In this document: one piece after another, positions 14,424-38,492 of the stretch
How positions within the stretch are numbered: position 1 is the first letter of the stretch
Layout: every line of letters begins with the position of its first letter
UHGV virus genome: UHGV-1274323
Reading direction: 5' to 3' (one strand)
Length of the DNA: 41,059 nt
DNA from: a virus
The notes under the pieces: model-generated
What the model was told of the DNA's origin: nothing
The model's input: only the letters and a program-made list of their open reading frames with translations
Databases searched by the model: none
Position numbers and translations under genes: made by a program

Positions 14424-16358
14424 ATGCAGGAACAAATCGGAAAGGCGCCGGAGGCGAACGGTGTCCGGTTGGTGAGTATTTCGCCGGAGACGGCGGGGCA
14501 GGCGGCGGAGTCCGCTGTTCCGGCCGGGCGGATCGGAGAAGAAGAGATTCGGGAAGCCGCCCGGGTTCTACAGGAATACAAGCGGGGCAAGGCCAATCTG
14601 GAGGCCCGCATCATCGACAACGAGCAGTGGTGGAAGCTGAGGCATTGGGAACAGATCCGAAAGAAGAACGAGCACGACCCGGAACCGGTATCGGCCTGGC
14701 TGTTCAACTCCATTGCCAACAAGCACGCGGACGCCATGGACAACTTCCCCGAGCCCAGCGTACTGCCCCGGGAGGAGGGGGACAAAGAGGACGCCCGGGC
14801 CCTGTCCTCCATCCTGCCGGTGGTATTGGAGGAAAACGGGTACGAACAGACCTATTCGGACAAATGGTGGTATAAGCTCAAAACCGGTACAGGGGTGGAG
14901 GGCGTTTTCTGGAACCCCGGAAAGCTGGGAGGGCTGGGAGACATCGAGATCCGTAGGTTGGATCTGCTGTCCCTGTTCTGGGAGCCGGGTATCCGGGACA
15001 TCCAGAAGTCCCGAAACGTCTTTCATGTGGAGCTGGCCGACAACGATCTGCTGGAGCAGCGGTATCCTCAGCTCAAGGGGACGCTGGGCACTTCCACGGT
15101 GGATGTGGCGCAGTACGTCTATGACGATGCCGTGGACACCTCCCATAAATCCGCCGTGGTGGATTGGTACTACAAGCTGGAGGAAGGGGGCCGGACCCGG
15201 CTGCATTACTGCAAGTTTGTGAACAGCTGTCTGCTGTATGCGTCGGAGAACGATCCCCTGTATCAGCAGAGGGGGTTTTACGATCATGGGGAATACCCCT
15301 TCGTGTTCGACCCCCTGTTTATGGAAGAGGGCACGCCGGCGGGGTTCGGTTATATCGACATTATGAAAAGTCCCCAGCTGTCCATTGACAAACTGAACCA
15401 GGTGATTCTGAAAAACGCTCTTATGTCGGGGAAAAAGCGGTTCTTTATCCGTGCGGACGGGGCGGTCAACGAAGAGGAGTTTGCCGACTGGAGCCGCGAT
15501 TTTGTCCATGTGCAGGGCAACCTGGGGGAGGACAGCATACGGGAAATCGAGACGCGGCCGCTGGATTCTATCGTAGCCACCGTTATGCAGTTAAAGATCG
15601 ACGAAATCAAGGAGACCTCCGGCAACCGGGATTTTTCTCAGGGAGGGACCACCTCCGGCGTGACGGCGGCCTCCGCCATTGCGGCGCTGCAGGAGGCGGG
15701 AAGCAAGCTGTCCCGGGATATGATCAAAGCCTCTTATCGGGCCTTTACCCAGGTATGCACCCTGTGCGTGGAGCTGATTCGCCAGTTTTACGATGAGCCC
15801 CGGCAATTCCGCATCCTGGGGGAGCGGGGCGCCATGGAATTTATCCAGTACAGCAACGCCGGGATACGTCCTCAGGAGCAGGGGCAGGCCTTTGGAGTAG
15901 AGCTGGGGTACCGGCTGCCGGTATTCGATATCAAGATCCGGTCACAGAAGAGCAGCCCTTTCTCCAAGCTGAGCCAGAATGAGATGGCGAAGGAGTTCTT
16001 CGGCATGGGCTTCTTTCGGCCGGATATGGCGGATCAGGCCCTGTCCTGTATGGAGATGATGGACTTTGAGGGCAAGGATGCGGTGATGAACCGGGTAGCG
16101 CAGAACGGCACGCTGTATCAGATGGTACAGCAACTCCAGCAGCAGGTGATTCAGCTGGCGGCCATTGTGGACGCGCAGAATGGGACGGCCATTGCCCCGG
16201 GAGCAGCCGCTGCGGATTTGGGAAAGGTTGCGGCTCCCAAAGAAGGGAGCGGGACGGCGGTGGAGACCAATCCCCTGGGCGCGGCGGTGCAGTCCTCCCG
16301 GAATACGGATGCGGCGACAGCACGGAGCCGGGCCATGAACGCGGCCAGGCCGCAGTAG
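14424..16358 (+). CDS. Portal protein
   Basis: 644 aa, directly downstream of terL with RBS CAGGAGGCG. Order and size are canonical. Confidence 0.8.
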   Translation: MQEQIGKAPEANGVRLVSISPETAGQAAESAVPAGRIGEEEIREAARVLQEYKRGKANLEARIIDNEQWWKLRHWEQIRKKNEHDPEPVSAWLFNSIANKHADAMDNFPEPSVLPREEGDKEDARALSSILPVVLEENGYEQTYSDKWWYKLKTGTGVEGVFWNPGKLGGLGDIEIRRLDLLSLFWEPGIRDIQKSRNVFHVELADNDLLEQRYPQLKGTLGTSTVDVAQYVYDDAVDTSHKSAVVDWYYKLEEGGRTRLHYCKFVNSCLLYASENDPLYQQRGFYDHGEYPFVFDPLFMEEGTPAGFGYIDIMKSPQLSIDKLNQVILKNALMSGKKRFFIRADGAVNEEEFADWSRDFVHVQGNLGEDSIREIETRPLDSIVATVMQLKIDEIKETSGNRDFSQGGTTSGVTAASAIAALQEAGSKLSRDMIKASYRAFTQVCTLCVELIRQFYDEPRQFRILGERGAMEFIQYSNAGIRPQEQGQAFGVELGYRLPVFDIKIRSQKSSPFSKLSQNEMAKEFFGMGFFRPDMADQALSCMEMMDFEGKDAVMNRVAQNGTLYQMVQQLQQQVIQLAAIVDAQNGTAIAPGAAAADLGKVAAPKEGSGTAVETNPLGAAVQSSRNTDAATARSRAMNAARPQ

Positions 16359-16369
16359 GAGGATAGAAG

Positions 16370-16705
16370 ATGACAACGGTGGAATACAGCAACCGGGGCG
16401 GGATGTTCCGCCTGAAGGCGGACGGTCATGCTGGATGGGAGGGGACGGAGCCCGGTCGTGATTTGGTGTGTGCGGCGGAATCCATGCTGGCCTATACCCT
16501 CCTGCAATCCCTGCAGGATGCCAGGGAGCGAGGATGGATTCAGGAGCTGGATACCGATATCTGGGACGGCGGCGTATTGGCGGAGGCAGTTCCCGCCCCC
16601 GACGGCATGGTCCGGGTCGCCACCATTTACCGCACGGTATTGACCGGCTACCGGATGCTCTCGAGGCGGTATCCGCACAACGTGGAGGTGCTAGTGGACC
16701 GGTGA
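16370..16705 (+). CDS. prp: Prp-family cysteine protease (ribosomal-processing protease homologue)
   Basis: ADGHAGWEGTEPGRDLVCAAESML matches the Prp/YsxB His-Cys dyad region (GHAx…DxVCAAVS). It lies between the portal and scaffold genes. Confidence 0.7.
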   Translation: MTTVEYSNRGGMFRLKADGHAGWEGTEPGRDLVCAAESMLAYTLLQSLQDARERGWIQELDTDIWDGGVLAEAVPAPDGMVRVATIYRTVLTGYRMLSRRYPHNVEVLVDR

Positions 16706-16843
16706 CGGAAATATTTTTTCTCGCCGCATGCAAGCGGGGAGAAATGGGAAACGGGATGCGCTATGCTGATCATGGCAGGGGAATCCGCAGGAGTGCGGAA
16801 ACCGGCTGGCTCTTGGGAAAGACCATGAAAGGAAGGGACAAAA

Positions 16844-17845
16844 ATGAACGAAACAAAGGGATTGCTCCAGCTGAATCTGACGCTGTTTGACGGCGGAGAG
16901 GGAGGCGGAGCTCCCACGGGCGATACAGCGCAGGGCCTTCCCGACGCCGGGGGAGGCAAACGGGCGAATCCGCTTGCTCATGTGGTATACGGCAAGGTGT
17001 CTCCCGATGACGGAGGCCCCGTGACGCATGCTGGGAAGGAGCAGCAGAATCCTCAGGACGCCGCTGAGAAACCCACATCCGATCCGAACGCGGCACCTCC
17101 GCCGGAGGCGGACAAGGCCGGGGATAAGACCGGCGGCAAGCGGGCCGCTTTTGAGGAGCTGATCCGCGGAGAATACAAGGATCAGTTTAACGCCCGCATG
17201 CAGAAGATCATCAACCAGCGCTTTCGGGAGACCAAAAACCTACAGGCGCAAGTGGACGGAGCACGTCCGATTCTGGACATGCTGGCGCAGAAATACGGGG
17301 TATCCGGCGGGGACCTGAAGAAGCTGGCGGCCGCCATCGAGGAGGACGACGCCTACTATGAAAAAGAGGCGCTGGACCGGGGTGTGTCGGTAGAGCAGCT
17401 CAAGCAGATGCGCCGCGTGGAGCGGGAAAACGCGGAGCTGCGCCGCAGCATTCAGGAATCCCGGCGCCGGGAGGAGGCTGACCGGGTATATGCCGGATGG
17501 GTGAAGGAGGGGGAGGCCCTCAAGGAGATTTATCCGGCCTTTAACCTGGAAACGGAGGTTCAGGACCAGCGATTCACCGATCTGCTCCGCAACAACATCG
17601 ATCTGCGAACAGCCTACGAAGTGGTGCATCGGGATGAGATACTGGGCGGCGCCATGCAGTATACGGCCCGGCAGGTGTCGGAAAAGCTGGTGAACGATAT
17701 CAAGGCTAAAGGCAGCCGGCCCACCGAAAACGGGGTATCGGCCCAGAGCGCGGCGGTGGTGAAATCGGATGTGAATGCTTTGACCCGGCAGGACCGGGAC
17801 GAAATTGAAAGACGGGTCATGCGGGGAGAACGGATTGTTTTTTGA
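16844..17845 (+). CDS. Scaffolding protein
   Basis: 333 aa, highly charged, coiled-coil-rich, between portal and capsid. The N-terminus MNETKGLLQLNLTLFDGG carries a Prp-type cleavage motif. Confidence 0.6.
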   Translation: MNETKGLLQLNLTLFDGGEGGGAPTGDTAQGLPDAGGGKRANPLAHVVYGKVSPDDGGPVTHAGKEQQNPQDAAEKPTSDPNAAPPPEADKAGDKTGGKRAAFEELIRGEYKDQFNARMQKIINQRFRETKNLQAQVDGARPILDMLAQKYGVSGGDLKKLAAAIEEDDAYYEKEALDRGVSVEQLKQMRRVERENAELRRSIQESRRREEADRVYAGWVKEGEALKEIYPAFNLETEVQDQRFTDLLRNNIDLRTAYEVVHRDEILGGAMQYTARQVSEKLVNDIKAKGSRPTENGVSAQSAAVVKSDVNALTRQDRDEIERRVMRGERIVF

Positions 17846-17884
17846 CGCCGGTAATCCGCGGAGGCCCAAAGAAAGGATGACGGT

Positions 17885-18907
17885 ATGAAAAACGCACAGT
17901 ATTGGCTGGATCTGCAGCTGTTTGCGACGGTGACGCAGACCACCACCCTGAACGGTTCCGGGAACGATCTGTCCCCGGAAATGAAAACCTACTATGAAAA
18001 GCGGCTGCTGGACAATGCGGAGCCCAATCTGGTTCATGACCAGTTTGCCGACAAGTATCCCATTCCGAAAAATGGGGGCAAAACTATCGAATTCCGCAAA
18101 TACAGTCCCCTGGCCAAGGCGACCACAGCCATCACGGAAGGGGTAACCCCCGATGGCAACAAGCTGAATGTGACGGCTATCACCGCCACCATTGCCCAGT
18201 ACGGCGACTGGATTCAGATGTCCGATCTGCTGGACCTGACGGCCATTGACAACAACGTGCTGCAGGCGACCAAGCTGCTGGGCAGCCAGAGCGGCCGCAC
18301 CCTGGACACCATCACCCGGGAGGTGCTGGCGGGCGGTACCAACGTGATCTATGCCCCTAAGGTAGCCGACGGTGTGGAAACGGCTGTTACCTCCCGCGCC
18401 GGACTGGATGCTACGGCCAAGATCAACGTGGATCTGATTTTTAAGGCGGCCCGGGCGCTGAAAGCCATGAACGCCAACAAGATTGACGACAGCTTCGTGG
18501 CCATTGTGCATCCCGATGTGGCGTATGACCTGATGCGCTGCGAGGAGTGGATCGACGCCCACAAGTACGCCACCCCGGACAACATCTATCAGGGGGAAAT
18601 CGGCAAGATGGGCGGCGTGCGGTTCGTGGAATCCACCGAGGCCAAGATCTGGACCGGTTCCGGCTGTCCGTCCGGCCTGGCGGTGTACGGCACAGTGGTG
18701 CTGGGAGCCCACGCCTACGCCACCACTGAGGTCACCGGCGGCGGACTGCAGCATATCATCAAGCAGCTGGGCTACGGCGACGATCCGCTGAACCAGCGCA
18801 GCTCCTGCGGCTGGAAGGCCACCAAGGCGGCCAAGCGCCTAGTGGAGGAATACATGGTGCGGATCGAATCCTGCTCCTCTTTCTCCTCCACGGCCACCGC
18901 CAACTGA
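17885..18907 (+). CDS. Major capsid protein
   Basis: 340 aa following the scaffold gene. N-terminal Prp-type motif WLDLQLFATV. A strong terminator follows downstream. Confidence 0.75.
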   Translation: MKNAQYWLDLQLFATVTQTTTLNGSGNDLSPEMKTYYEKRLLDNAEPNLVHDQFADKYPIPKNGGKTIEFRKYSPLAKATTAITEGVTPDGNKLNVTAITATIAQYGDWIQMSDLLDLTAIDNNVLQATKLLGSQSGRTLDTITREVLAGGTNVIYAPKVADGVETAVTSRAGLDATAKINVDLIFKAARALKAMNANKIDDSFVAIVHPDVAYDLMRCEEWIDAHKYATPDNIYQGEIGKMGGVRFVESTEAKIWTGSGCPSGLAVYGTVVLGAHAYATTEVTGGGLQHIIKQLGYGDDPLNQRSSCGWKATKAAKRLVEEYMVRIESCSSFSSTATAN

Positions 18908-23189: not shown

Positions 23190-26100
23190 ATGACATTCCG
23201 GGACTATCTGAAAAACAGGGGCAGGGAGGAAAAGGAGGATTCCGCACTGACTCGGCTGGCGGAGAAAAAGGTCTCCAGCACTGAAAGCGAAAGGATGAGC
23301 TTCCGTGATTTCCTGCGGGGCGCCGGACAGGACAGCACGTCCGGCGGCGCTCAGGACAACCTATTCACACAGATCAAGGAGGAGCGCCGGGCCAGAAGCT
23401 GGGCAAATTCGGCGGATTCTTTCCTTCAAAAGATTCAAAACGACTATTCCGCCCGGCATGAGGGCGGATATCAGTCACCGGAATCCATACAGGAATATAA
23501 GAAAAGCGTATCCAGCGAGCTACAAGAGCTACTGGACGGGGTGAAGGATGCTAAGCAATTCGCTTCTCAGATCACGGACGAGGAGAAACGGAAAAAATAC
23601 GAAAAGATGGTTAGCGATACCCAGCATTACCTGCAATCTGTGGACTGGCGTCTGGATCTGGAGGAGAGATACTGGGACAAGTGGGATTCGGAGGACAGCT
23701 ATAACCAGTGGAAAAAGGAATATGACCGGCAAAAGGAGCTGGACAGTTATCAGCAATCCATTTTAAGCCGGCCGGACTTTGAGGAATATGCCCGAAAGGG
23801 GGCAGCTACAGAAAATATATCGCTCCGCGACGCCACGGATGCACGCGGGCAATTCCGTTCGGGGAGCGACGAATTGATCGGAAACAAGGTTACCTTTACC
23901 CGGGATAATGCGCAGTCTCGTCCGTGGGAGACCGCGGCGCACAGCTCAATAAAACCCGATATCGAGGAACGCTATACCTATATGACGGATGACGAAGTAT
24001 CGATATACAATTACCTGCTGGCCAAAGAGGGAGAAGAAAAAGCCGATGAATATCTGGCCACGCTTACTCCCTATTTGAATTACCGGCAGGGCGAGGATAT
24101 GGCGGAGAAACGGAAAGGGTCGTTTCTGGATACTGTCGGGCTTTCTTTGACTTCCGGGCTCGATCAGTTTATAAGCGGCGTGCGCGGCTGGTTTACAGAG
24201 GAGGCAGAGCCGGTTTCCGCCACGCAAATAGCGGCGGAGCTGGCACGGGAAAATATCGGCTCCGATATCGGAAAATTCGCTTTTGATGCGGGGCGGGTGC
24301 TGGGCAACATGGCTCCGTCCATAGCTCTCGGAATGGTGACCGGTGGGGTTGGATCGGCGGCAGGATTGGGGACCGCCGGGGTACAGATGGCCAATGCTGT
24401 CGGCACAGGTCTATCCGTCGGCGCCAGTGCCGGCGGCAACAATTATCAGCAGGCGCTGCGGGAGGGGTATTCCGTACCGCAGGCGCGAACCTATGGCCTG
24501 ACCACCGGGGCATTGGAAGCGGGGCTGCAGACCGTCCTCGGCGCGACGGCTAAAGGCGCTGGCCTTGTCACCTCCAAGGTTTCCTCCTCACTGAGCAATC
24601 TGGTAAAAAGCGCCTCTCAGAAAGTAGCGGTAAAGGTGGGCATGTCCGCTTTGGGCGAGGGGTTCGAGGAATATCTGCAGGAAATCCTGAACCCGGTGGT
24701 GCGCAACCTGACGCTGGGAGAAGACAATGAGTTCCAGCTGTTCACGGAGGAAGCCCTATACAATGGGATGCTGGGAGCTATCACCGGCGGGCTGTTCTCC
24801 GCGGCGGATGCGGGAGCAAGCCGGGTGTCCAATCCGTTCTTCAGCGTGTATGGTACAGAGGGAAGCGTATCCACCCAAACGGATGAAAGCGGCAATGTGC
24901 TGGGGTACATGCACTTTAACCGCCAGGGGGATATTGACGGGTATGTCCGGGTAGCCAAGGATGGAGAAGCGGCCATCCATAAGCCGTTTACCTCCTATGA
25001 GAATATCCAGGCTTATGCCTATGTGGACAAGGAAGGTGTGACCCAGTATGGGCGGGTCAACGCGGACGGAGAGGTGGTGACCGGGTCCTTTCGCCCGAAT
25101 GACACCGCGGATGCCGGTGCAGCGTCTTCCGTAGAAGCCGATGCGGTATCTTCTACGGAGACGGCGACGGGAAGTGTGGATACTCATGCGGCGGACGGAC
25201 CGGCGAACATTCCGGCGCTGTACCAGCTGGCGCAGGACGCGGCGGCCAACCGGCAGGCAACGCCGGCCGGGACGGCAAAGGGAGCGGTTCGGACAAATGG
25301 AACGCCGGCCGCAGATGGGGAAAACATACGGGCGGCTTCGGCACGCCCGGAAGACACAAGCCGTGCCGCCACAAGCGGCCAGCAGGGCGGCACAATAGCC
25401 AATACGGGCATTCGGACAGACCACACAGCGGAAGCCAATGCGCTTCTCGCCATTTCGGGACAGGAGGCCGCTCCGGTGACCGTTTCGGGAATCGGCTCCG
25501 TGGAGGACGGCAACGTCCGGGTAACCCTTTCCGGCGGGGAAACGGTATCGCTGGAGGATGTGTCCTTCGACAGCCAGGAGACGGAGAGCCTGTATTATGC
25601 GGCGTCTGATTATACCACCCCAACGGCCCGGGCCTTTGTGTCCGGATATACAGGAGAATTGCCGCTGAAAACGTACAAGGTGGCATTTGACTTCATCCGC
25701 AGTCAGGCCAGGGAGGGAGTATCCTTTGACACGGCGGTAAAGCAAGCGGGCCTTGCGGGACAGATGATGGGCCTGGAAGCGCAGCAGCTGGCCTGGTATT
25801 CCGGCGTGAATGAAACGGCGGCGTTGCACAAAGCCGGTGAAAATGGTACGATATCTACAACGAAAGAAGGGAGTAGGGACAATGGAGAAGAAGAAATCCA
25901 TATTCGACAATATCAGGGTTCCGCTGGAGGACCTGACGGAGGAACAAGAAAAGAAAATAAAAAGCGATCCGAATTATCAAAAAGATCTGGAGGAGTCCAG
26001 GAAACGCCACAAAGAGTGGAAAAAAGCTTATCGGGAGCAACAAAAAAGAGAAAACGAGTAGTCATTTCTTCCAACGAGGGAAATTTCTCATTTGATTCCA

Positions 26101-29100
26101 TTCATCAGGACTCGTTGACTTCAAGGCAGAGAGCTCTTGTTCAAAAAAGCGCTGAATACGGATATGAGCTGCACTATTTTACTAAGGGGACCGTATTCAA
26201 TGATGGGGAAGAGGATAAGATTATTGATAAGCAGGCGTTTATGATCCCCGGTCTAAACGCCATCTTTGCCATGGATGGTCAGGACATAGATTTCCTTCAC
26301 CATGAGCTGTTTCATCAGTTTTTTGATGAGAACAAGCATGGAGAACGGGCGTTGTTTAATGGTGTTAATAACAATGCCAACGAAGACAGTGCGCAATGGG
26401 AGTATTATCGAAATCGGGCGAAAGAAGCATACCGACGCGAAATCCCCGACGAACTGCTCATAGAAGAAATCACCGCTGACCTTTGTGAATACGCCATGTC
26501 GGGATCGGAACAGATGCACCGGCGCCTGGATGGACTGTTTCCGGATGGGATGCTGGAGAAGCTGGCGGGGCAGGCGCGGGATGTGTTTGCGGCGAACAGG
26601 AAAGGAGAAAAAGGAAAAGCCGCCGAAGAAGCCGGCGGCGTGAGGTATTCGCTGGAAGGCTACACGGAGCATCAAAAGGAAAACTGGGCCAACAGCAAAA
26701 GTATTGTCCTGTATGAAAGCCAGGAGCAGTTGGAGAGGTTCATTGATGATGCGCTGGACAAAAGAAATCTCAGCAAAAAATTGTATTTTGGCCGGATACC
26801 TAATGAATTGGCTGAACGGGTAATGCGTGAAACTGGAATAAACATAAAAGGATATAATTGTACCATTCAGGCTCAGGAAATACGTAAAATCCTTTTGCAC
26901 TCACATGGAGACAGTGAGAGTGAACAGATGCGGGGACAGAGAGCAGTTACACGAGAAGATATCCTTCAAATTCCAGAAGTGATCGAATCCCCCGATATCA
27001 TTCGGCTTTCGTCCAAGCTATATGAAGGCAAGCCAGTTCTTCAATTTGTAAAAACCGTCGAAGGGAAAACCACGGTAGTATCATATGTTTCAAAAAAGCA
27101 TCGGGATTTAGCGGTTCAGACGATGTATGCAGGCATAAAGAAAGGAAGCCTTGCCACCGCGACAGATGCTCCGACGAGCGGCCCCCTGTCTCTCACGTCC
27201 GAAACGACCGTTGGTACAGCTTCCAATAACAGTATAGCAAAAAGCGTGAATACTGTCAACGATAGTCTTTCCCAAAGCGGCGCCGGTGTGATCTGGGAAA
27301 CGCCGGAAAATGAAGTTTCGGAATGGATTCGGGATCAGGCGGCGGTGCTGGACGCCATCGGGAAAGAATTCGGCTATCGTTTCCTTATCCGTTCCTCCCT
27401 GCTGGGAGGCAAGGCAAACGGACAGACAGTCCCCGGCAGCCGGGAGATCGTTCTTTCGGCGGACAGCATGGAGGAAGCGCTGCTGTACTGGGCGGGGCAT
27501 GAGGTGATCCATGATCTGCAGGTCAGCTATCCGGAGGGCTATGAGGAGATTTCCCGTCAGGTGCTGGAGTATCTGGGACAGCAGGAGCGCTTTGATCTTA
27601 ACCGGAGGAAGCAGCAGCTGATCAGGGAATACCGGCGCGGCGGACTGGAGCTGACGGAAGAAGAGGCGGAGGAGGAAATCGTCTGCAACGGCGCGGCCGT
27701 CGCTTTTGCCGACGAGGATTTCATCCGGGGATGTGCGGAAAGAAACCGGAGTCTGTTGGAATGGCTGAAGGAAAAGCTGAACAGCCTGCTAGCGCGCATC
27801 CGGGAGGTGCTGGCCCGGCTGACGCGGACCAACCCGGAGGTGCGTGCTTATGCGAAAGCCCCCCTGGAGACTCTTACCCGGTTGCAGCAGTCGGTGGAGA
27901 CGGCGCTGCGGGAAAGTGCCGGGAGGGCAGGCGGCAGGCAGTCCTTCCGGCGGTCCATGACCACGCGCACGAGTACGGACAGCCAGGGGAGGACACTGTC
28001 ACCGGAACAGGAGGAATTCTTCCGCAACAGTGCGATCCGGGACAAGGACGGTCATCTTCAGGTGATGTATCATGCCACGGATGCTCAGTTCACGGTGTTT
28101 GATAAGAAAAAGCAGGGAACTGTCACCGATGGCGGGATTTGGGGCCGTGGTTTTTACTTTGATGTAGAGGAATCCTTTGCCCTGGAGTTTGGGAGCAAGG
28201 CCACCGCGTATTATCTCAACGTAGCCCGGCCTTACCGCACTACCTATGAGGCTACCTGCGGGGAAATCATGGAGCTGTTCCGGGAAAACGGCATTCGAAT
28301 CCGTTTCCGCATGGACCCCGAAGAAGGATTGAATCGATTCATCCGCCGGTTTGGATATAAAAAGTTCAGCGAGGCGCTGCGCTTCCTGGGGTATGACGGG
28401 GTATTTGTCTCCGGGAATGAATGCGCTGTATACGAGCCCAATCAGATCAAGCGGATTGACAACCTGTCTCCGACGGAACAGGAGGATGTGCGCTATGCGG
28501 CCAAAGAAAAGCGGGGGCTGCGGTATTCCCTGCAGAATGTGGATGGAGCGGACATCGACAGTCTGACAGAGGAGAATGAGGCGCTGCGGCGCCAGGTGGA
28601 GCTGCTGAAGCAGGAGTTCCGGTTGACGGAGGGACACCAGGTAAGCAAGGCGGCAGTGGAAGGACTGGCGGCCAAGGTTCTGCGGCAGACCAAGAGTGTG
28701 TATGACAAGGACACGCTGGCGGGAAATCTGCAAACGGTGTTTCGCTACATAGCCAACGACCCGGAGGCCAATTTTCAGGAGACGATGGAGGTGCTCACCG
28801 ACATTGCCGGGAGCGTCCTTCAGGAATCCACGTCGATGAATCGTGACCTGTACAACGAGTACGCCGACATGCGGGAATATTTCCGAAAGACCCCGTTGTC
28901 CCTGTCGGAGGCGGCGAAAGCCGAGCTGACAGACGGCTATGCGGATTTTCGTTCCCGCAATTTCGGTATGCTCAATTTGAGATCGGGCGGAACTCTTCTG
29001 AATGAACTGTGGGGTGAAATCTGCGAAAAATGGCCGCAGTTCTTTGATGCGGATCTTGCCGAGACGGAACAGCCGTATGCGGTAGTAGACGCGCTGAATG

Positions 29101-32100
29101 CTGTAAAACCGGCCTATATCAATCCATATGGGATGAACAACGCCGATGCCGCCCGTGATCTGGCGATGCAGCTGTATTATGAATACTTCGAGCTGCCGGA
29201 GGTGCATACCTTTGCGGACAAGCATAAAGCGGAGCTGGAGAAGCTCCGTGCAGAGTACCGCCGGAAGCTGCTGGATGCCCGTTCCGCCGCCCGCGACCAG
29301 TACAACAAACGGCTGGAAGAGGTACAGGAATGGAATGCCGGGAAGCGGCGGGAGCTGTCCAAGAAAATCCGTGAGACGGAGAACGCCAAACGTAAGCAGC
29401 AGCTGGCGGCCCAATACCGGCGGCTGATGGACCGGAAGGCGGAGCAGCTGGAAAGGCAGAAAGCCAAATTCCGGACCCAATGGGAAAATCGTGAGGCAAA
29501 CCGCCGGGAGCGGGAGGAGATTCGGAAACTGCGGACCCGGATTCGTTCCATTGCCGACGAACTGAGTAAGCGGTTGGTAAAGGAAACGGATCAGAAAAAC
29601 ATTCCGGAGGATTTCAAAAAGCCGGTGGCCGAGCTGCTGTCGATGCTGGATTTCACCACCGACCGGACGGAATCGGACAGCCAGGCAAGCCGGCGTCTGC
29701 GGGATTTACAGGCGGCCTATGCCAAGCTGGAAAGCGCTACCCAAGGAGAGGAAACGCCCCTTACTGACTACTTTGACCCGGATATTCTGAATATGATCGA
29801 GGAAGTGGCGGGACTGGTAGAGGGCAAGCGGGTGATTGATCTGGGGGTCCAAGAGCTTTCCCGGCTCAAGGATTTATTGAAGTCCATCTCCACCATTGTT
29901 CATAACGCCGGAAGGCTGTTCCGCGAGGATAAAGCGGTGACGGTAGCGGAGGCTGGAAAGGAAGCTATCCGCGTCCTCAACGCCAAAAAGCAGTTCCGGC
30001 GGGCCAAAATTGCGGAAGGGGAGAACAATCCCTTTGGATTTATGAGTGATTTGCTGGGCAAGGGGATGCTGACACCGTATTATTTCTTCAAGCAGTTGGA
30101 CGGACCGATGTGGGAACTGTTCCAGAAGGTGTATGACGGTGAGGATGTCCATACGGTGCTGCTGGCCCAGGCGGAGCAATACGCCAAGGAGACCATGGAG
30201 CGATATCACTTCCACGACTGGGACCGGTACGAGCTGAAAAAGGTCGGCCCGGTAGTGGTAAAGGATGAATCCGTCCCGTTCCAAACAGCCGGCGGGGATA
30301 CAGTCAGGCTGACTTTAGGCGAAATGCTGTCCCTGCATTCCCTTTACCGCCGGGATACGTATAAGAAAACCCATCACCTGGACAAAGGCGGTTTTGCCCT
30401 AGAGCGGGACGAAAAGGGGACAAGGCGGTTCGTCCTCTTCACAGACGAAGATTTTCTAAAGCTGGATGGGATGATTACCGAAGAGCAGAAGAAATTCTGG
30501 GATACGATGCTAAAATACCTGAGCAATGATGTTGCGGGGTGGATCAACGACACCTCCATGAAGCTGCTCGGCATCCGGAAAGCGACGGACACGTTCTATT
30601 TTCCCACGGAGGTAAGCGATACCGCCCTGCGGACGGAGCCAAGGCACGGTGCGGCCTCACCAGTGCTGAATCCGCCATTCCTGCGCCGGACCAGGGAAAA
30701 CGCCAACGCACCTGTGGTGGTGCGCGACGCCCTGACCGTGTGGACGGAACACGTGCAGCAGGCGGCGCTGTTCCGGGCATTCGGGATGCCGGTCCGGGAT
30801 CTGCTGCGGGTATGGAATTACAAATACCCCGGGGAACCGGGGCTGACCGTGAAGGCGGCCGTGCAGGGAGCTTTCGGCATACGGGCCAACGAATATATCG
30901 CCGATTTCCTGAGCGATCTGGACGGCGGTGTACAGCCCCAGCGGGAGACGGGATTGTTAAACTGGGGTATCACGCGGTTCAAGAAGCTGTCCGTGCTGGG
31001 GAACCTCCGCGTGGCCATCCAGCAGGCAATCTCCCTGGTCCGGGCGCTGCCGGATGTGAAGCTGAAATATCTGTTGATTCCGATCACCCCCGCCCAGATA
31101 AAACGGGAATATGAAGAGGCTATGCACTACGCGCCGGTGTATCGGCTCAAGAAATGGGGCAGTTTTGATGTTGGAATGGGTCAGGGCTTTCTGGAACGCC
31201 TTCTGGAGCAGGAGTATAAGGGCCTGTCCAAGGTCAAGGGCCTGGTGGCCGATTCCCGGTACCGCGATCAGGCAATGGGATTCCTGGCGGAAAAAGGAGA
31301 TGAGGTTGCCTGGGCGATTCTGTGGCGCGCGTACAAGCTCACCACGCGGGACGAGCATCCCGAGCTAGTAAAGGGGAGTGAGGCATTTTTCCGGGAGGCC
31401 GCCCGGTTGGCTACGGATTCTATCCGGAAAAGCCAGTGGTATGATTCCGTTTTCAAACGCAGCGCGATGATGCGTTCCAAGGATACCGGTGCGAAAATGG
31501 CCACCGCCTTTGTGGGAGAACCCACCACGATTTATAACATGCTGCTGGACGCCGCCAACGAGGCGAAAAGCGGAAAGGCGGGGTCAAAGAAGAAAGCGGG
31601 AAAGATATTTAAAGCTGTCCTCGCCAGCGGAATTCTTGGCGCTTTGGTGGTCAGTATCGCGGACGCTATGCGGGATGACGAAGACGAAAAGAAGGACGAG
31701 AACGGCAATATCATCGGGACCCGTTCCTTCTGGGACAAGTACTTGGAGGCTGTGCCGGAGAATTTCGTTGACAGTTACCTTGGGCTGATCCCGTATATTA
31801 AGGATGTCGTGTCCATCTTCCAGGGCTATGAAGTAAAACGCACGGATATGGAGCATTTCCAGAAGCTATATTATGCTCTGACGAAGCTGGGCAGTGACGA
31901 ATATACCACGGCAGAAAAAATAGATATTCTGGCAGGAGCGGCTACCGCCCTATTCGGCATCCCTTACGCCAATGTTTCTCGCGATCTGAAGGCGATTTAC
32001 CGGACCTTTTTCGGAGACGGCACAGATGGAACCGCCAGCTACCGGGGATATCTGCTGTACCGGTCGGTGCTGGAGGGAGACAAAGAGACCTATCAGGAGC

Positions 32101-32768
32101 TTTACAACGGATACCGGGAAGACGGTAAGACGGACAAGGAAATTCAAGGGGTGCTCCGTTCCGAGCTGGCTACCTATAGCCCCCTGATTTCGGAATCGGT
32201 GGCGGCGAAGCTGAACGGGGATCTGAATGCTTATGAAGCCGATATTCAGAAGATGATCCAGTCCGGATTCCAGCGTGAGATGGTTATTGATGCGGTGAAG
32301 AACTTTGAGCAGAAGCTGAAAACCATTGCCGGATACCGGGTGGACGGGAAGACAGAAGAAGCAGAAAAAGCACTGGCCAAGCTGTTTCCGCCGGAAGTGG
32401 ACGAGGAAACCCGAAAAACGATTGAAGCAAGAATTGATACGCTCACGGAAAAGAAGGCTGCCGAGCCGGAAGAGGAGGAAGAAGAACCCTCCTCCAGCCT
32501 GTACACTTATACCGATCTGTGCGAGGCAATCGAAAGGGGAGAGTCAAACAATGTCTCCAGGATTCTCCAGGATATGCGGAAAAACGGGAAGGAGGATAAA
32601 ACCATTCGGACTCAGGTAACCAGATACTTTAAGCCCTTGTATATCGTCTGTTATCAAAATAGGGATAAAGAGGGAATGAAGAAAATCGAGAAGGCTTTGT
32701 ACGCTTTGGACCTGGGGTACGATTACAAGGATTTTGAAGCGTGGACCGATCCTAAGGAGGACGAATAA
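23190..32768 (+). CDS. Giant 3192-aa virion protein: tape-measure/ejection-protein-like scaffold carrying embedded effector domains (polyvalent-protein-like)
   Basis: Single 9579-nt ORF with RBS GGGGGGTGTGAGGGAAAA-ATG and a strong terminator downstream. Gly/Ala-rich hydrophobic stretches at aa ~330-560. Long coiled coil at aa ~1790-2000. PARP-like ART motif set at aa ~1620-1760. HExxH at nt 26301-26315 and 27498-27512. A low-GC cassette lies at 25870-27300. Confidence 0.8.
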   Translation: MTFRDYLKNRGREEKEDSALTRLAEKKVSSTESERMSFRDFLRGAGQDSTSGGAQDNLFTQIKEERRARSWANSADSFLQKIQNDYSARHEGGYQSPESIQEYKKSVSSELQELLDGVKDAKQFASQITDEEKRKKYEKMVSDTQHYLQSVDWRLDLEERYWDKWDSEDSYNQWKKEYDRQKELDSYQQSILSRPDFEEYARKGAATENISLRDATDARGQFRSGSDELIGNKVTFTRDNAQSRPWETAAHSSIKPDIEERYTYMTDDEVSIYNYLLAKEGEEKADEYLATLTPYLNYRQGEDMAEKRKGSFLDTVGLSLTSGLDQFISGVRGWFTEEAEPVSATQIAAELARENIGSDIGKFAFDAGRVLGNMAPSIALGMVTGGVGSAAGLGTAGVQMANAVGTGLSVGASAGGNNYQQALREGYSVPQARTYGLTTGALEAGLQTVLGATAKGAGLVTSKVSSSLSNLVKSASQKVAVKVGMSALGEGFEEYLQEILNPVVRNLTLGEDNEFQLFTEEALYNGMLGAITGGLFSAADAGASRVSNPFFSVYGTEGSVSTQTDESGNVLGYMHFNRQGDIDGYVRVAKDGEAAIHKPFTSYENIQAYAYVDKEGVTQYGRVNADGEVVTGSFRPNDTADAGAASSVEADAVSSTETATGSVDTHAADGPANIPALYQLAQDAAANRQATPAGTAKGAVRTNGTPAADGENIRAASARPEDTSRAATSGQQGGTIANTGIRTDHTAEANALLAISGQEAAPVTVSGIGSVEDGNVRVTLSGGETVSLEDVSFDSQETESLYYAASDYTTPTARAFVSGYTGELPLKTYKVAFDFIRSQAREGVSFDTAVKQAGLAGQMMGLEAQQLAWYSGVNETAALHKAGENGTISTTKEGSRDNGEEEIHIRQYQGSAGGPDGGTRKENKKRSELSKRSGGVQETPQRVEKSLSGATKKRKRVVISSNEGNFSFDSIHQDSLTSRQRALVQKSAEYGYELHYFTKGTVFNDGEEDKIIDKQAFMIPGLNAIFAMDGQDIDFLHHELFHQFFDENKHGERALFNGVNNNANEDSAQWEYYRNRAKEAYRREIPDELLIEEITADLCEYAMSGSEQMHRRLDGLFPDGMLEKLAGQARDVFAANRKGEKGKAAEEAGGVRYSLEGYTEHQKENWANSKSIVLYESQEQLERFIDDALDKRNLSKKLYFGRIPNELAERVMRETGINIKGYNCTIQAQEIRKILLHSHGDSESEQMRGQRAVTREDILQIPEVIESPDIIRLSSKLYEGKPVLQFVKTVEGKTTVVSYVSKKHRDLAVQTMYAGIKKGSLATATDAPTSGPLSLTSETTVGTASNNSIAKSVNTVNDSLSQSGAGVIWETPENEVSEWIRDQAAVLDAIGKEFGYRFLIRSSLLGGKANGQTVPGSREIVLSADSMEEALLYWAGHEVIHDLQVSYPEGYEEISRQVLEYLGQQERFDLNRRKQQLIREYRRGGLELTEEEAEEEIVCNGAAVAFADEDFIRGCAERNRSLLEWLKEKLNSLLARIREVLARLTRTNPEVRAYAKAPLETLTRLQQSVETALRESAGRAGGRQSFRRSMTTRTSTDSQGRTLSPEQEEFFRNSAIRDKDGHLQVMYHATDAQFTVFDKKKQGTVTDGGIWGRGFYFDVEESFALEFGSKATAYYLNVARPYRTTYEATCGEIMELFRENGIRIRFRMDPEEGLNRFIRRFGYKKFSEALRFLGYDGVFVSGNECAVYEPNQIKRIDNLSPTEQEDVRYAAKEKRGLRYSLQNVDGADIDSLTEENEALRRQVELLKQEFRLTEGHQVSKAAVEGLAAKVLRQTKSVYDKDTLAGNLQTVFRYIANDPEANFQETMEVLTDIAGSVLQESTSMNRDLYNEYADMREYFRKTPLSLSEAAKAELTDGYADFRSRNFGMLNLRSGGTLLNELWGEICEKWPQFFDADLAETEQPYAVVDALNAVKPAYINPYGMNNADAARDLAMQLYYEYFELPEVHTFADKHKAELEKLRAEYRRKLLDARSAARDQYNKRLEEVQEWNAGKRRELSKKIRETENAKRKQQLAAQYRRLMDRKAEQLERQKAKFRTQWENREANRREREEIRKLRTRIRSIADELSKRLVKETDQKNIPEDFKKPVAELLSMLDFTTDRTESDSQASRRLRDLQAAYAKLESATQGEETPLTDYFDPDILNMIEEVAGLVEGKRVIDLGVQELSRLKDLLKSISTIVHNAGRLFREDKAVTVAEAGKEAIRVLNAKKQFRRAKIAEGENNPFGFMSDLLGKGMLTPYYFFKQLDGPMWELFQKVYDGEDVHTVLLAQAEQYAKETMERYHFHDWDRYELKKVGPVVVKDESVPFQTAGGDTVRLTLGEMLSLHSLYRRDTYKKTHHLDKGGFALERDEKGTRRFVLFTDEDFLKLDGMITEEQKKFWDTMLKYLSNDVAGWINDTSMKLLGIRKATDTFYFPTEVSDTALRTEPRHGAASPVLNPPFLRRTRENANAPVVVRDALTVWTEHVQQAALFRAFGMPVRDLLRVWNYKYPGEPGLTVKAAVQGAFGIRANEYIADFLSDLDGGVQPQRETGLLNWGITRFKKLSVLGNLRVAIQQAISLVRALPDVKLKYLLIPITPAQIKREYEEAMHYAPVYRLKKWGSFDVGMGQGFLERLLEQEYKGLSKVKGLVADSRYRDQAMGFLAEKGDEVAWAILWRAYKLTTRDEHPELVKGSEAFFREAARLATDSIRKSQWYDSVFKRSAMMRSKDTGAKMATAFVGEPTTIYNMLLDAANEAKSGKAGSKKKAGKIFKAVLASGILGALVVSIADAMRDDEDEKKDENGNIIGTRSFWDKYLEAVPENFVDSYLGLIPYIKDVVSIFQGYEVKRTDMEHFQKLYYALTKLGSDEYTTAEKIDILAGAATALFGIPYANVSRDLKAIYRTFFGDGTDGTASYRGYLLYRSVLEGDKETYQELYNGYREDGKTDKEIQGVLRSELATYSPLISESVAAKLNGDLNAYEADIQKMIQSGFQREMVIDAVKNFEQKLKTIAGYRVDGKTEEAEKALAKLFPPEVDEETRKTIEARIDTLTEKKAAEPEEEEEEPSSSLYTYTDLCEAIERGESNNVSRILQDMRKNGKEDKTIRTQVTRYFKPLYIVCYQNRDKEGMKKIEKALYALDLGYDYKDFEAWTDPKEDE
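28040..28470 (+). other. PARP-like (H-Y-E class) ADP-ribosyltransferase-type catalytic signature inside the giant ORF
   Basis: VMYHATDAQF (His) … GIWGRGFYFD (Gly-x-Gly-x-Tyr-Phe) … NECAVYEPNQIKRIDNL (Glu-x-x-x-Tyr-x-x-x-Gln). These parallel PARP's WHGS / GKGIYFAD / NEYIVYDIAQVNLKYLL. Confidence 0.55.
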
Positions 32769-32770
32769 GC

Positions 32771-32801
32771 GAGGTGGGGAGAGATTCTCCCCACCTTTTG
32801 T
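32771..32801 (+). terminator. Rho-independent terminator after the giant gene
   Basis: GGTGGGGAGAG-att-CTCCCCACC followed by TTTTG. Confidence 0.75.
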
Positions 32802-32826
32802 TATGCTGGGGACAGGAGGGATGACT

Positions 32827-35667
32827 ATGCCGCCGGTAAGAACCATTGAATTTAAAGTAACTCATGCGGGCCTGGTCCCTGGTTCTCCTCAATTTGCCGG
32901 AGTGCAGGGGGAACACAATGCTACCCGTGTCAGCTTTTTGCTGGATACCGTCTTACAGACGGGATATGTGTACCGTATTGAATATGTGGATGGACGGGGA
33001 AACTGGGATACGACGGATCTGCTGACCATTTCCGATGGCGCCATCGCCTATGACTTGCCGTCTGCCTGGACGCGCAATGGAGGGGAAGCGGAAATCCATC
33101 TGGTGGCGTCTGCGCTCGATTCGGAGGGTAAAGAAACACAGACCTATTTTTCCCTGGCGGGAAAGCTGTACTATGAAGACAAGTCCGCCGATGAAACCGG
33201 TGAAACCAAAGCGGGCCTGACCGAACTGATACAGGATACCCATGAGGCAATCGACGAAGCGAACCAGGCCACGGATAATGCAAATGAAGCAGCGGAACGG
33301 GCAAACAATGCCACCGGGGCGTTGAATCAGGCGCTGTCCGATGTGGAAGAAGCCATCGACGGGGCCAATGCAGCGCGGGATGCGGCGAATCTGGCGGCTC
33401 AGGAGGCGAAAGAAGCGGCGGCAACGGCAGAAGAGGAAGCGGAGGCGGCCCATCAGATTACTTTGGCAGCCCAGGCAGCGGCAGGGAAAGCAGATACCGC
33501 GGCGACCGCTGCCCAAAATGCAGCTTCGGCGGCGCAGTCCGCTGCATCCGCGGCCAATACAGCGGCGGGAACGGCCAATACCGCTGCCGGGACTGCAAAC
33601 GCGGCCGCATCCGCAGCCAACGCAGCCGCCGAGGCGGCAAATGAAGCGGCAGACGCGGCCAACGAAGCAGCGGGGAGCATCGCCGATAAAGTAGACACAG
33701 TGGACGCACTGCCAGTGTACGCGATGACGCGGAGCAGCGATCCCACCGATTGCTGGCAGCCGACGCCAGGGATCGCCGTGCCGGATACCGGGCCATATAC
33801 CGGAATGGCAATCCGCGCGGTGTGGGAAGAAGAATGGGATGCGTCTGTGCCAATATGGGCTTTTGGCGATATATACAGTATGCGGGCAAGTGGACATCAT
33901 CCTGCCGGAACCTATATCCTGACGTTTACATCATCTTATGACTGGACTGTGCAGCCACTGGACATGGCATACACAGACGAACGGGCGGAGCAGGCAGCTG
34001 ACGAAGCGGCGGAGGCTCACGCAGCGCAGGTGCGGCGGACGTATCAGCCCGCGTGGAAGCGCACTGCAGGAGGCTGTCCGGTGTCTGTTGCGGATGCGGC
34101 GGAAGGGGCCGACCTGTCCAGCTTGGTACTCAAGGGCCGGACGGTGGTGTCTGGTACGCCTTCTCCCGATGCACCCGTCACCATTACCGGGGTGAAGCCT
34201 CAGACAGTGGCTGTGACGGGGAAGAATTTGATTCCACCCAAGGCGGCTTCGGAAACCATCAACGGAGTGACGTGCACCGTCAATGCTGATGGGAGCTTAA
34301 CTCTCAACGGCACGGCGACAGCGACGGCAACTTTCAGGGTATCCGATTTTGCTTTGTGTCCCGGAGTGTACACCATATCCTCCGGGAAAATCCTTAATCA
34401 GGGGGATAACCTCATCCTACGCAAGCAATCTCAAGAGGTATGGCTGAATTATGCAGGACATGCCTCTCCCTCCCAAACAAAATTGATCGGATACAAGGGT
34501 ATGGTGAGAGTGTACCTAAACCTAAAAGAGGGGTCAACGTATACAAACCTAACCATCTATCCTCAGCTGGAGGCGGGCAGCGAGGCCACAAGCTACAAGC
34601 CATACCGAGGGGAAACGATTACACCGGACGAGGTGGAGCTGTACGGGGATGCTCATGCCGTAGGGAAGAACCTGATTCCCACTTTTGAAGGATCAGCATC
34701 TATAAATGGAATATCTGTATCCATCAACACGGACGGCAGCATCACGCTGAACGGCACGGCAACGGAAACGGCATTTATCAATTTCCCGCACATGATGATT
34801 AAGGCAGGAACCTACACACTGTCAACGGGAATTGTATTGCCCTCAGGAACCTTTATTACCCTGCGTGAGGGAGGGGCCAGTGCGAAAATGCTTTTATCCG
34901 TATATGATACTGCCTCATCCAAGTCGGGGGCCATCTCCTATAGCGGAGATGCTTTTGTGTATTTTGCGGTACAAGCCGGCACAACGGTATCCAATCTGAC
35001 CATCTATCCTCAGCTGGAAGCGGGCAGCGAAGCGACGGCGTACGAACCCTACCAGGGAATGACCACAGCACTGGAGGATGGGGACAGCCTGGACCTAGCG
35101 ACAGGAGAGGTAGTCCGCCGGTGGAAGCGGCTGGAACTGGACGGGACGGAGAAATGGACGATACGGTCGGCCAATGAGCACGGCCTTACCAACTTTAGCT
35201 TGATAATGATTGATCCTTATCTTACCAAGTTCCCGAACGTATATTGTACACACTATCCCACCCAGAACACATTATTTGCGGATACGACAGACCGAGGCAT
35301 ATTACTATCGGCAAATTACACTATCTACATCCGCGAAACATACACAACAGTAGAGGATTTCAAAGCCTACCTAGCAGCGCAGAAAGAAGCCGGAACACCG
35401 GTGACCGTGTTGTACAGGATGAAAAAACCGGAGGTAGTGTCCGGATGGGCTCACTCCCTTGCGCAGCCGGAAGGGGAGATGGTGATCTCAGCCCTGGGGA
35501 CAAGGGGAGAGACGGCGGAAGCCGTGGACACGGAGGCTCTTTATACCTACCGGCCGGATTGGGACGATGTTTTGAGCCGTCTGGCGGCGCTGGAGGAGAT
35601 TGTGTCCGGTGGAATTATCAGCGGTTCGGTTCGGGTAAGTCCCAACATGGGAATTAAAATAGTGTAA
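32827..35667 (+). CDS. Tail fibre / receptor-binding protein with Ala-rich coiled coil and duplicated distal domain
   Basis: RBS GGACAGGAGGG. About 180 aa of Ala-rich heptad-like sequence (nt ~33180-33720). Two ~130-aa paralogous modules each end [21 protein letters not shown] (nt ~34210-35060). Confidence 0.6.
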
Positions 35668-35681
35668 AAGGAGGAAAAAAG

Positions 35682-36161
35682 ATGGCGGACGTGAAAGTGC
35701 AAATCCAGCTTTTGGACGAAGAAACAGGTGAGGTGGTTACAATAGTTGATCCCATTACCTCACCGGATGCGGTAATGTTTTCTGACGGAAAGACTTTATC
35801 GCAAAAACTTGAGGAAATTGAGTTGACACCAGGCCCAAAGGGGGACAAGGGAGATAAAGGCGATCCGGGCACGGCCGGAACATCCGCGACCATTACGGGG
35901 GCTACGGCTACGGTGGACGCCAATACGGGAACCCCTTCTGTAACGGTTACACCTGGGGGAACCGCTTCCGCGCGTACCTTCGCCTTTGCTTTCAAAAATC
36001 TAAAAGGCGCCACCGGGGCTCAAGGGCCAAAGGGAGCGACCGGAGCCGCTGGAGCTACTGGGCCTAAAGGAGACAAAGGTGATCCAGGTGACAATGTGAA
36101 AGTGGGTACCTCCTTGAGTTCGGCTACGGAACGGAAGCTGTTTTTCAAGGTGGTGATTTGA
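35682..36161 (+). CDS. Collagen-like (Gly-X-Y) repeat protein
   Basis: [20 protein letters not shown]… and [29 protein letters not shown] triplet repeats. RBS AAAGGAGGAAAAAAG. Confidence 0.75.
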
Positions 36162-37760: not shown

Positions 37761-38051
37761 ATGGACGAATTGGCGGTAAAAGTGGCAACCCTTGAACAGC
37801 GGCAAACCGTATCGGAGCACCGGATCAAAGACCTGGAGGGAGAAGTAAGGGATATCCGCACTTTAACCGCCGCTATGGCCAGGGTCAATGAAAAGGTGGA
37901 CGGGCTGTGCGGAGACGTGGAAGAGATCAAAAAGGATGTTAAAGACATCACGGCGCGTCCGGGACGGAAATGGGACAAGCTGGTGGCAGCAGCGATCGGG
38001 GCGATAGGCTCCGCCCTGGTCGCTAGCCTCCTTGCTCTTATTCTGAAATAA
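37761..38051 (+). CDS. XhlA-like lysis-associated membrane protein
   Basis: RBS AAGGAGGAACAAC. N-terminal coiled coil, then a C-terminal TM segment LVAAAIGAIGSALVASLLALIL. Adjacent to the holin and endolysin. Confidence 0.55.
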   Translation: MDELAVKVATLEQRQTVSEHRIKDLEGEVRDIRTLTAAMARVNEKVDGLCGDVEEIKKDVKDITARPGRKWDKLVAAAIGAIGSALVASLLALILK

Positions 38052-38067
38052 GGAAGGATGAATCAAA

Positions 38068-38280: not shown

Positions 38281-38290
38281 GCAAAGAGAA

Positions 38291-38330
38291 AGCCGGGGCA
38301 TCCTAACGGGTGCTCCGGCTATTTGTTTTG
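38291..38330 (+). terminator. Rho-independent terminator after the lysis cassette
   Basis: AGCCGGGGCA-tcctaacggg-TGCTCCGGCT (10-bp stem with one G·U) followed by ATTTGTTTTGGGGTTTT. Confidence 0.65.
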
Positions 38331-38488: not shown

Positions 38489-38492
38489 ACTA

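Follow-up and report, generated by a model that had tools for sequence, protein, structure and literature searches.

We analysed a 41,059-nt stretch of viral DNA (UHGV virus genome UHGV-1274323; hereafter the window), in which a single plus-strand gene encodes a protein of 3,192 amino acids (aa). As noted in an earlier reading of the same DNA (the original prediction), its open reading frame (ORF) runs uninterrupted over 9.58 kb. A strong ribosome-binding site (GGGGGGTGTGAGGG, a Shine-Dalgarno-like run) lies 5′ of its ATG at 23190. The giant protein begins and ends with conserved regions, which we call the N and C modules, and between them it carries a small alpha/beta domain, a first zincin-like domain, a PBECR3 domain, a second zincin-like domain and an ADP-ribosyltransferase (ART) of the H-Y-D type, in that order (Table 1). 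We propose that it is probably a phage-type polyvalent protein, a class defined by Iyer, Burroughs, Anand, de Souza and Aravind (2017, J Bacteriol, PMC5512222), that is, a carrier loaded with enzymatic cargo that would be packaged in the virion and ejected together with the DNA.

Two of the cargo domains were recognised through Pfam families that had themselves been defined on polyvalent proteins (PMC5512222), and both exceed the curated cut-offs. PBECR3 (PF18812) scores 63.9 bits against a cut-off of 30 (E 6e-19 on the segment), and ART-PolyVal (PF18760) scores 52.7 bits against 31.2. The PARP-like ART signature that had been pointed out in the original prediction is hence real. Indeed, across 21 aligned domains the residues of its triad are conserved in 90% (H1628), 86% (Y1656) and 100% (D1736) of cases; in the ART-PolyVal clade (H-Y-[EDQ] class, Tox-ART-HYD2) the His has been placed on strand 1, the Tyr on strand 2 and the Asp on strand 5 (PMC5512222). 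In PBECR3, H1239 is conserved in 100% of the domains and T1311 in 90%. The catalytic residues of both domains are intact. The PBECR3 region is modelled confidently within a structure model of aa 335-1534; a Foldseek comparison of this model with RelE-like toxins in the PDB gave a fold match that was not significant.

The two predicted HExxH motifs are likewise present, at aa 1038 and aa 1437, each within a zincin-like domain. Both domains are mutually homologous (hhalign probability 91.7%, E 7.7e-7), and in ten diverse copies of the second one H1437, E1438, H1441, E1496 and D1508 are unchanged. Since the H, E, H and downstream E are invariant in the family, these domains fit the layout of polyvalent metallopeptidases, in which the helix bearing HExxH is complemented by a Glu on a later helix (PMC5512222).

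Comparison with relatives separates the part of the protein that is fixed from the part that varies. Our search yielded 344 homologues, 17 of which have 76-96% identity and near-equal length and come from independent assemblies. The distant homologues (more than 100) measure 2,400-4,600 aa and are mostly found on contigs of ~10-45 kb, the longest being near whole-phage size (~40-45 kb). BLAST coverage by 103 of them reaches plateaus at aa ~300-550 and ~2000-3000, with a poorly shared middle. Hidden Markov models (HMMs) of the modules place the N module near the N terminus, with a median start at residue 208, whereas the C module closes the protein, its end lying a median of 90 residues before the C terminus; about 115 of 120 homologues follow this arrangement. 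The Pfam families found as cargo differ among homologues (PF18760, PF18812, PF18814, PF18798, PF18819, PF18838, PF13151 and PF00145), and some relatives carry the same cargo domains in a different order. Sequence comparison therefore describes the giant protein as a fixed carrier, made of the N and C modules, around exchangeable cargo.

One exchange can be followed in the protein itself. In relatives, the alpha/beta domain lies directly upstream of a zincin-like domain, and in two homologues (P0022 and P0054) a domain of the zincin 2 type starts within ~40 residues after it. Relative to these two proteins, the giant protein has an insertion of ~510 aa (aa 875-1385) that comprises zincin-like domain 1 and PBECR3. 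The G+C fraction at third codon positions (GC3) is only 0.29-0.48 over aa 901-1050 and 0.36-0.44 over aa 1201-1350, compared with 0.55-0.81 in the rest of the ORF and 0.6-0.8 over most of it, so that the compositionally foreign cassette of the original prediction is confirmed. Furthermore, homologues P0018-P0020 share aa 723-1363, and P0021 shares aa 723-1160, at 43-50% identity, whereas the C modules are only 33% identical. The lack of a counterpart in relatives for these ~510 aa, their low GC3 and an identity higher in the cassette than in the C module all argue that the cassette was inserted into the fixed carrier. Two other homologues (P0091 and P0105; 2,857-2,916 aa) combine an N module with a PBECR3 cassette of 60% identity and wholly lack the C module, so that the N module can evidently be joined to C-terminal regions of other kinds.

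The short motif [IVL]R[YF]S occurs about five times as often in proteins of the family (0.83 per protein) as in shuffled sequences (0.16). It recurs, often as D-I-R-Y-S-L, at domain junctions of homologues in the range P0022-P0114, after the ART and before PBECR3 cassettes; the junctions of the giant protein are given in Table 1. This motif may be a processing (cleavage) site or a recombination joint or scar.

Table 1. Features of the giant gene, its product and the neighbouring genes (window coordinates; aa, residues of the giant protein)
Feature	Residues	Position	Strand	Remarks
P22/SU10-like portal, phage Prp protease, scaffold candidate, major capsid protein		14424..18907	+	
Four genes of 161, 578 (PHROG 'internal virion protein'), 171 and 379 aa		19277..23171	+	from head genes to giant gene
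Giant ORF	1-3192	23190..32768	+	ATG start, 3,192 aa; alternative start 23295 = Met36
N module	~190-560	23757..24869	+	N-proximal in homologues; conserved
Uncharged Gly/Ala/Ser-rich segment	370-423	24297..24458	+	54 residues
Ala/Thr/Ser/Gly-rich linker	561-743	24870..25418	+	poorly conserved; modelled as disordered
Small alpha/beta domain	~744-880	25419..25829	+	confident model, no assignment
Compositionally foreign cassette	~900-1350	25887..27239	+	low-GC3 core of insertion
Zincin-like domain 1	~975-1150	26112..26639	+	H1038-E1039-xx-H1042 plus E1092/E1093
Junction motif VRYSL	1151-1155	26640..26654	+	zincin 1 / PBECR3 boundary
PBECR3 BECR-fold RNase domain	1203-1314	26796..27131	+	Pfam; H1239, R1248-G-Q1250, T1311 conserved
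Zincin-like domain 2	~1385-1560	27342..27869	+	family-invariant H1437, E1438, H1441, E1496, D1508
ART-PolyVal ADP-ribosyltransferase	1618-1761	28041..28472	+	Pfam; H1628-Y1656-D1736 triad
C module	1764-3060 (core ~1990-3060)	28479..32369	+	conserved, mostly helical, C-terminal
Junction motifs VRYA and LRYSL	1767-1781	28488..28532	+	ART / C-module boundary
Most hydrophobic helix of the protein	2806-2824	31605..31661	+	Kyte-Doolittle 2.17; then conserved acidic motif (RDDEDE; RDDD(E) in the alignment)
977-aa fibre candidate and collagen-repeat fibre protein		32734..36161	+	directly 3′ of giant gene

The N module is marked by the motifs MTDDEVxIYNY, NMxPSIL, GNxYxxxxxxGY and EGxEExLQ. The Gly/Ala-rich stretch that had been noticed in the N-terminal third lies at aa 372-407, inside the uncharged segment of this module, and aa 370-450 contain 22 small-xxx-small motifs; the segment (Gly-zipper-like) is a candidate membrane-inserting element. 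The HMM of the N-module core matches gp25 of Escherichia phage PTXU04 (aa 171-347) at 32-36 bits, compared with 6 bits for the best of 300 composition-matched shuffles, and it also matches, at 25.8 bits and in an N-proximal position, the giant protein NVP1183O_15 of Vibrio phage 1.183.O. The matching loci lie at 23200-23730 of the PTXU04 record (L040) and at ~475-830 of that of Vibrio phage 1.183.O (L047). The C-terminal regions of these two giant proteins, both from cultured phages of Gram-negative hosts, are of a different family, the LPD38 type; that of PTXU04 gp25 contains LPD38 and is common to phages of Vibrio, Aeromonas, Pelagibacter and Bacillus megaterium and to Stx phages. No match to the N module was found by tblastn against 50,697 phage records, and a word-indexed search with its core returned three short proteins only, which gives little information on its distribution. 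In the cultured member of the Oscillospirales Papillibacter cinnamivorans DSM 12816, a stand-alone protein of 216 aa (P0268) matches the N-module core with 36% identity over 65% of the query.

The C module spans ~1,100-1,300 aa. It is modelled (aa 1990-3060) as an almost wholly helical structure, with a pLDDT (predicted local distance difference test) of 73 and a pTM (predicted template modelling score) of 0.65, and the long helices modelled in the giant protein fall within it. About 30 residues are invariant in an alignment of 25 sequences (A2), including QQP, TQVYDS..RS..MRSK and FMAEPT. Foldseek against BFVD recovered the fold from numerous giant proteins encoded by uncultured phages, where it lies in the final fragment (best E 4e-37), the remoter matches having 12-16% identity and template modelling (TM) scores of about 0.4-0.5. 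No solved structural relative of the C module was found, and a sequence search of the PDB with the whole protein returned nothing.

To measure the extent of the family, the C module was searched exhaustively with phmmer against 1.84 billion representatives, counting clusters at 50% identity. At E <= 1e-3 it occurs in at least 3,645 clusters, and at E <= 1e-30 in 2,594, with a median length of ~3,000 aa among the top 150 matches. C-module proteins of 1.0-1.8 kaa also occur, all without N module; they may be truncated calls, and for this reason we do not take them for a cargo-free minimal chassis. A pattern scan of species-representative genomes located relatives in Oscillospirales metagenome-assembled genomes (MAGs) from human and ruminant gut (Faecousia, Ructibacterium, Acutalibacteraceae, Oscillospiraceae and Ruminococcaceae), some of them on contigs of 80-170 kb. 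A scan of genome contigs with a single sequence retrieved no relatives, and tblastn of the C module against the 50,697 phage records retrieved one unannotated faecal fragment. The two carrier modules, which make up half of the protein, have no Pfam or NCBIfam model, and the sole PHROG family that covers them is labelled as of unknown function.

The surroundings of the gene are those of a small phage genome. On the plus strand we found, in order, a DUF927 primase-helicase, terS, terL, a P22/SU10-like portal, Prp, a scaffold candidate, the major capsid protein (MCP), five genes (100, 161, 578, 171 and 379 aa), the giant gene, a fibre candidate of 977 aa, a collagen-repeat fibre and an Amidase_3 lysin. 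The location of the giant ORF between structural genes of the neck and the tail-fibre gene, as originally predicted, is thus borne out by the gene order. The minus strand carries an integrase (38578-39621), an S24/HTH (CI) repressor (39757-40392) and a 463-aa ORF with weak matches only (1155-2546). The GC fraction is 0.39-0.46 at the ends of the window (1-4700 and 38000-41059), where these minus-strand lysogeny genes lie, compared with 0.5-0.6 in the middle. Neither a terminal repeat nor a tRNA was found in the window; since a 96%-identical relative lies on a contig of 41,066 nt, it is probably a complete, circularly permuted genome. It represents a temperate, podovirus-like phage of ~41 kb from gut Oscillospirales (Clostridia). 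The synteny around the giant gene recurs in an NCBI MAG contig (L001) and in two integrated prophages (L038 and L039), next to which host genes including cotJ, prfA and coaE are found.

The original prediction had put the giant gene where a tape-measure or an ejection protein belongs. No tape-measure, tail-tube, sheath or tail-chaperone family was found in the giant protein or its neighbours (Pfam, PHROGs, NCBIfam), and the portal is P22-like, which makes the podovirus ejection protein the right analogy and a comparison with tape-measure proteins of related phages, as had been suggested, moot. The giant gene follows adaptor- and nozzle-sized genes and precedes the fibre gene, and hence occupies what we take to be the slot of the P22 ejection-protein genes 7, 20 and 16. 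No sequence or fold homology was found to the ejection proteins of podoviruses (P22 gp7/20/16, T7 gp14-16 and N4 gp50-52).

Some observations concern the head genes themselves. The phage has its own Prp cysteine protease (16370-16705), encoded directly after the portal. The leaders with which the scaffold candidate (MNETKGLLQLNLTLFD|GG) and the MCP (MKNAQYWLDLQLFA|TVTQ) begin, encoded at 16844-16900 and 17885-17930, resemble the L27 Prp cleavage site, so that Prp probably trims both proteins. The order portal, Prp, scaffold and MCP is kept in L001 and L038. In L039 a gene pair with RVT_1 (weak) and DUF6273 matches (3880-5737) separates the capsid genes from the giant gene; it may be a diversity-generating retroelement.

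Three properties of the giant protein place it in the polyvalent class. It combines at least two disparate activities in one polypeptide (PBECR3 RNase, ART and two zincin-like domains), it contains the diagnostic families PF18812 and PF18760 above their curated thresholds, and its gene stands among late or virion genes, from head and neck to fibre, as it also does in L001, L038 and L039. The view of the original prediction that the protein strings disparate enzymes together in the manner of a polyvalent protein is therefore supported. Neither of the outcomes that it had named as refuting, an ordinary tape-measure protein or a fusion artefact, was observed. To call the protein undescribed goes too far: its class dates from 2017 (PMC5512222), at least 3,645 related clusters exist, and BFVD relatives already bear names such as 'Nuclease', 'PolyVal ADP-ribosyltransferase' and 'Large polyvalent protein-associated domain-containing protein'. 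The present comparisons establish which domains the protein has and that their catalytic residues are kept, how carrier and cargo are arranged, that a cassette was inserted, and where the gene lies in the genome.

The rationale of the mechanism that we propose is taken from three precedents (phi24B gp47, PTXU04 gp25 and the virion RNA polymerase (vRNAP) of N4). The giant protein would be made late and enter the capsid by means of its carrier modules. It would then be expelled through the portal and the short tail, ahead of or with the DNA, and so replace, perhaps also as a conduit, ejection proteins of the P22 gp7/gp20/gp16 type, which have no recognisable genes here. Once in the cell, the zincin-like domains would cleave the polypeptide, for which the [IVL]R[YF]S junctions are possible sites, and the freed RNase and ART would disable RNA- or protein-based defences of the host, or retune the host machinery, before phage genes are expressed.

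The closest relatives in kind are the polyvalent proteins of Iyer et al. Like them, the giant protein is a multi-kiloresidue product of a late or virion operon that combines disparate enzymes; it shares their ART (H-Y-D) and PBECR families, and its HExxH domains fit their description of metallopeptidases (PMC5512222). It differs in its N and C carrier modules, which have no Pfam model and of which no description was found in the available parts of that article, and in that no MuF, portal or LPD domain was detected. With respect to MuF-anchored toxins, the giant protein gave no Phage_Mu_F match in Pfam, and among relatives MuF_C alone is seen in some. The T4 Alt and P1 Dar proteins, which modify the host or act against restriction, also include enzymes (an ART in the case of T4 Alt) that are packed into the head and reach the host along with the DNA (literature quoted in PMC5512222); unlike the giant protein, they are separate, much smaller proteins with different packaging signals, and the ART of T4 Alt belongs to the R-S-E clade, not to H-Y-D (PMC5512222).

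The three precedents resemble the giant protein in different ways. PTXU04 gp25 (2,198 aa) is a 'putative polyvalent protein' that is essential by CRISPRi-ART (PMC11879866), and PTXU04 is a podovirus by electron microscopy. Both are giant late-operon proteins with the N-module core at the same N-proximal position; gp25 differs by its LPD38-type C-terminal region and by having neither ART nor PBECR3, and its phage is lytic and infects a Gram-negative host. The polyvalent protein gp47 of phi24B (2,811 aa) is abundant in virions by mass spectrometry and has been proposed to be an ejection protein (bioRxiv 10.64898/2026.04.10.717836). The likeness here is that of a temperate podovirus with a giant polyvalent protein that carries a metallopeptidase and is proposed to be packaged in the capsid and ejected, whereas the differences are the LPD5, LPD1, MuF_C and LPD38 domains of gp47 and the location of its gene far from the head genes. 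In N4, the vRNAP gp50 (3,500 aa) starts with a region for injection and membrane association, has its enzyme in the centre and ends with a C-terminal region of ~1,400 aa that is needed for encapsidation, a three-part logic whose proportions match those of the giant protein, with loosely linked domains that pass through a narrow tail. Unlike the giant protein, N4 gp50 has an RNA polymerase as cargo, and the separate ejection proteins gp51 and gp52 are also present. The 1,474-aa protein of Bacillus PK1 showed no homology to the carrier modules.

Several results weigh against an ejected polyvalent protein with active proteases. For the zincin-like domains, no Pfam zincin family passes its threshold in the giant protein, the profile of zincin-like domain 2 matches IrrE with only E 0.9 (searched against PDB and Pfam), and 4 of its 10 copies match DUF6782 weakly (best E 1.6e-4). 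The model of aa 335-1534 is poor overall (pLDDT 53), being confident only at aa 744-880, in the zincin-1 helices and in PBECR3, and Foldseek returned nothing significant for this region from the PDB. With such a model and no significant match, structural confirmation of the fold was not obtained, and we call these domains zincin-like, on the basis of motifs and weak matches, rather than proven zincins. For the carrier, the N module is modelled by AF2 at low confidence, a profile comparison of the C module with the LPD38-type C-terminal region that cultured podoviruses have showed no similarity (hhalign probability 0.2%), and neither phi24B gp47 nor N4 gp50 has detectable homology or a significant sequence match, respectively, to either carrier module. 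We infer the podovirus morphology from gene content, and packaging into the virion and ejection from gene position and precedent; the processing and the targets of the protein are likewise proposed.

The alternative to be weighed most seriously is that of a purely structural ejectosome or wall-penetration protein, in which the carrier would form a trans-envelope conduit, the zincin-like domains would digest peptidoglycan peptides outside the cytoplasm and the effectors would be secondary. Such a role has been proposed for the gp47 metallopeptidase by the authors of the phi24B study, the Gram-positive wall is thick, and the genes from MCP to fibre include no further recognisable wall hydrolase of the virion; hydrophobic or uncharged segments are present in both carrier modules, and the essentiality of PTXU04 gp25 suits a structural role. 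We nevertheless consider it unlikely, because the substrates of the ART and of the BECR RNase (NAD+ and RNA) are cytoplasmic, because free swapping of cargo on a fixed carrier is the pattern of effectors and not of a conduit, and because no lysozyme, CHAP, NlpC or M23 domain was found in the giant protein (Pfam). It is less likely still that the gene merely lies in the late operon and encodes an unpackaged intracellular polyprotein, for instance a toxin that serves superinfection exclusion or kin conflict or has been domesticated by the host. Polyvalent proteins of prophages can be captured by hosts, which may turn them on incoming elements (PMC5512222), and all relatives found in genomes sit in MAG prophages. 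Against this, the position from neck or tail to fibre is constant in every locus examined, relatives are intact, 2.4-4.7 kaa in length and counted in thousands, and phi24B provides a packaged precedent.

An oversized tape-measure protein of a long-tailed phage would explain the Gly/Ala-rich, partly hydrophobic N module, the long gene upstream of fibre genes, and the labels 'Siphoviridae sp.' or 'Myoviridae sp.' that some BFVD relatives received automatically. We find this very improbable and have rejected it. The tape-measure profile match that would have spoken for it was searched for, together with tail-tube, sheath and chaperone families, and none was found; the portal is P22/SU10-like; and only five genes separate the MCP from the giant gene, none of them a tail-tube or tail-chaperone gene by Pfam and PHROGs (frameshifting was not specifically examined). 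Moreover, cargo swaps make the lengths of relatives range from 2,400 to 4,700 aa, a variation that a protein measuring tail length could not tolerate, and the N-module core is common to the giant proteins of the podovirus PTXU04 and of Vibrio phage 1.183.O (the morphology of the latter was not checked). The idea that several genes were fused into one during assembly or gene calling has the unusual length of the ORF as its sole point. It is ruled out for practical purposes by the 17 homologues of near-identical length from separate assemblies, by the same C-terminal architecture in at least 2,594 clusters at E <= 1e-30, and by the chance of 3,192 stop-free codons at the ORF's own base composition (~10^-63).

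The class has been known since 2017 and its enzymatic domains are in Pfam under that name, so that a known concept is extended here and nothing is overturned; the widespread carrier family itself is uncharacterised. What our analysis adds is the delimitation of a fixed N/C carrier, a cargo slot with one clear insertion, a large family with Oscillospirales hosts and a link, through the N module, to a culturable coliphage. This family comprises thousands of clusters in prophages of human and ruminant gut Oscillospirales and has no functional name in the public resources checked (Pfam, NCBIfam and PHROG). Hardly any experiments have tested polyvalent proteins since their prediction in 2017, and the present genome offers a clean example in a complete temperate phage, in which the fixed and the exchangeable half can be told apart down to one datable cassette insertion. 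The link to PTXU04 gp25 gives a tractable system for the packaging of a 350-kDa protein and its threading through a short tail. More tentatively, and with some doubt on our part, the N and C modules might constitute a hitherto undescribed chassis for delivery, very widespread with its at least 3,645 clusters, in place of the separate ejection proteins of classical podoviruses. The N module would then be an ancient membrane-insertion or injection element, common to the giant proteins of PTXU04 and of the Vibrio phage, the C module would be a capsid-docking element or conduit, and a recombination-driven cassette slot would lie between them, so that these phages would act as 'programmable syringes' for counter-defence enzymes in the gut microbiome.

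The two ends of the giant gene call for a comment on annotation. At its start the motif M[TS]FRD[YF]L is duplicated (23190-23315), at aa 1 and aa 36, and the gene call begins at the second Met in 15 of the 17 close homologues. As a consequence, the true start could be 23295; the first Met has the better ribosome-binding site. At the other end, the downstream 977-aa ORF is listed from a TTG, so that its first 35 nt coincide with the last ones of the giant gene (32734-32830), and an in-frame ATG ~28-30 codons later (MTMPPV...) is its likelier start.

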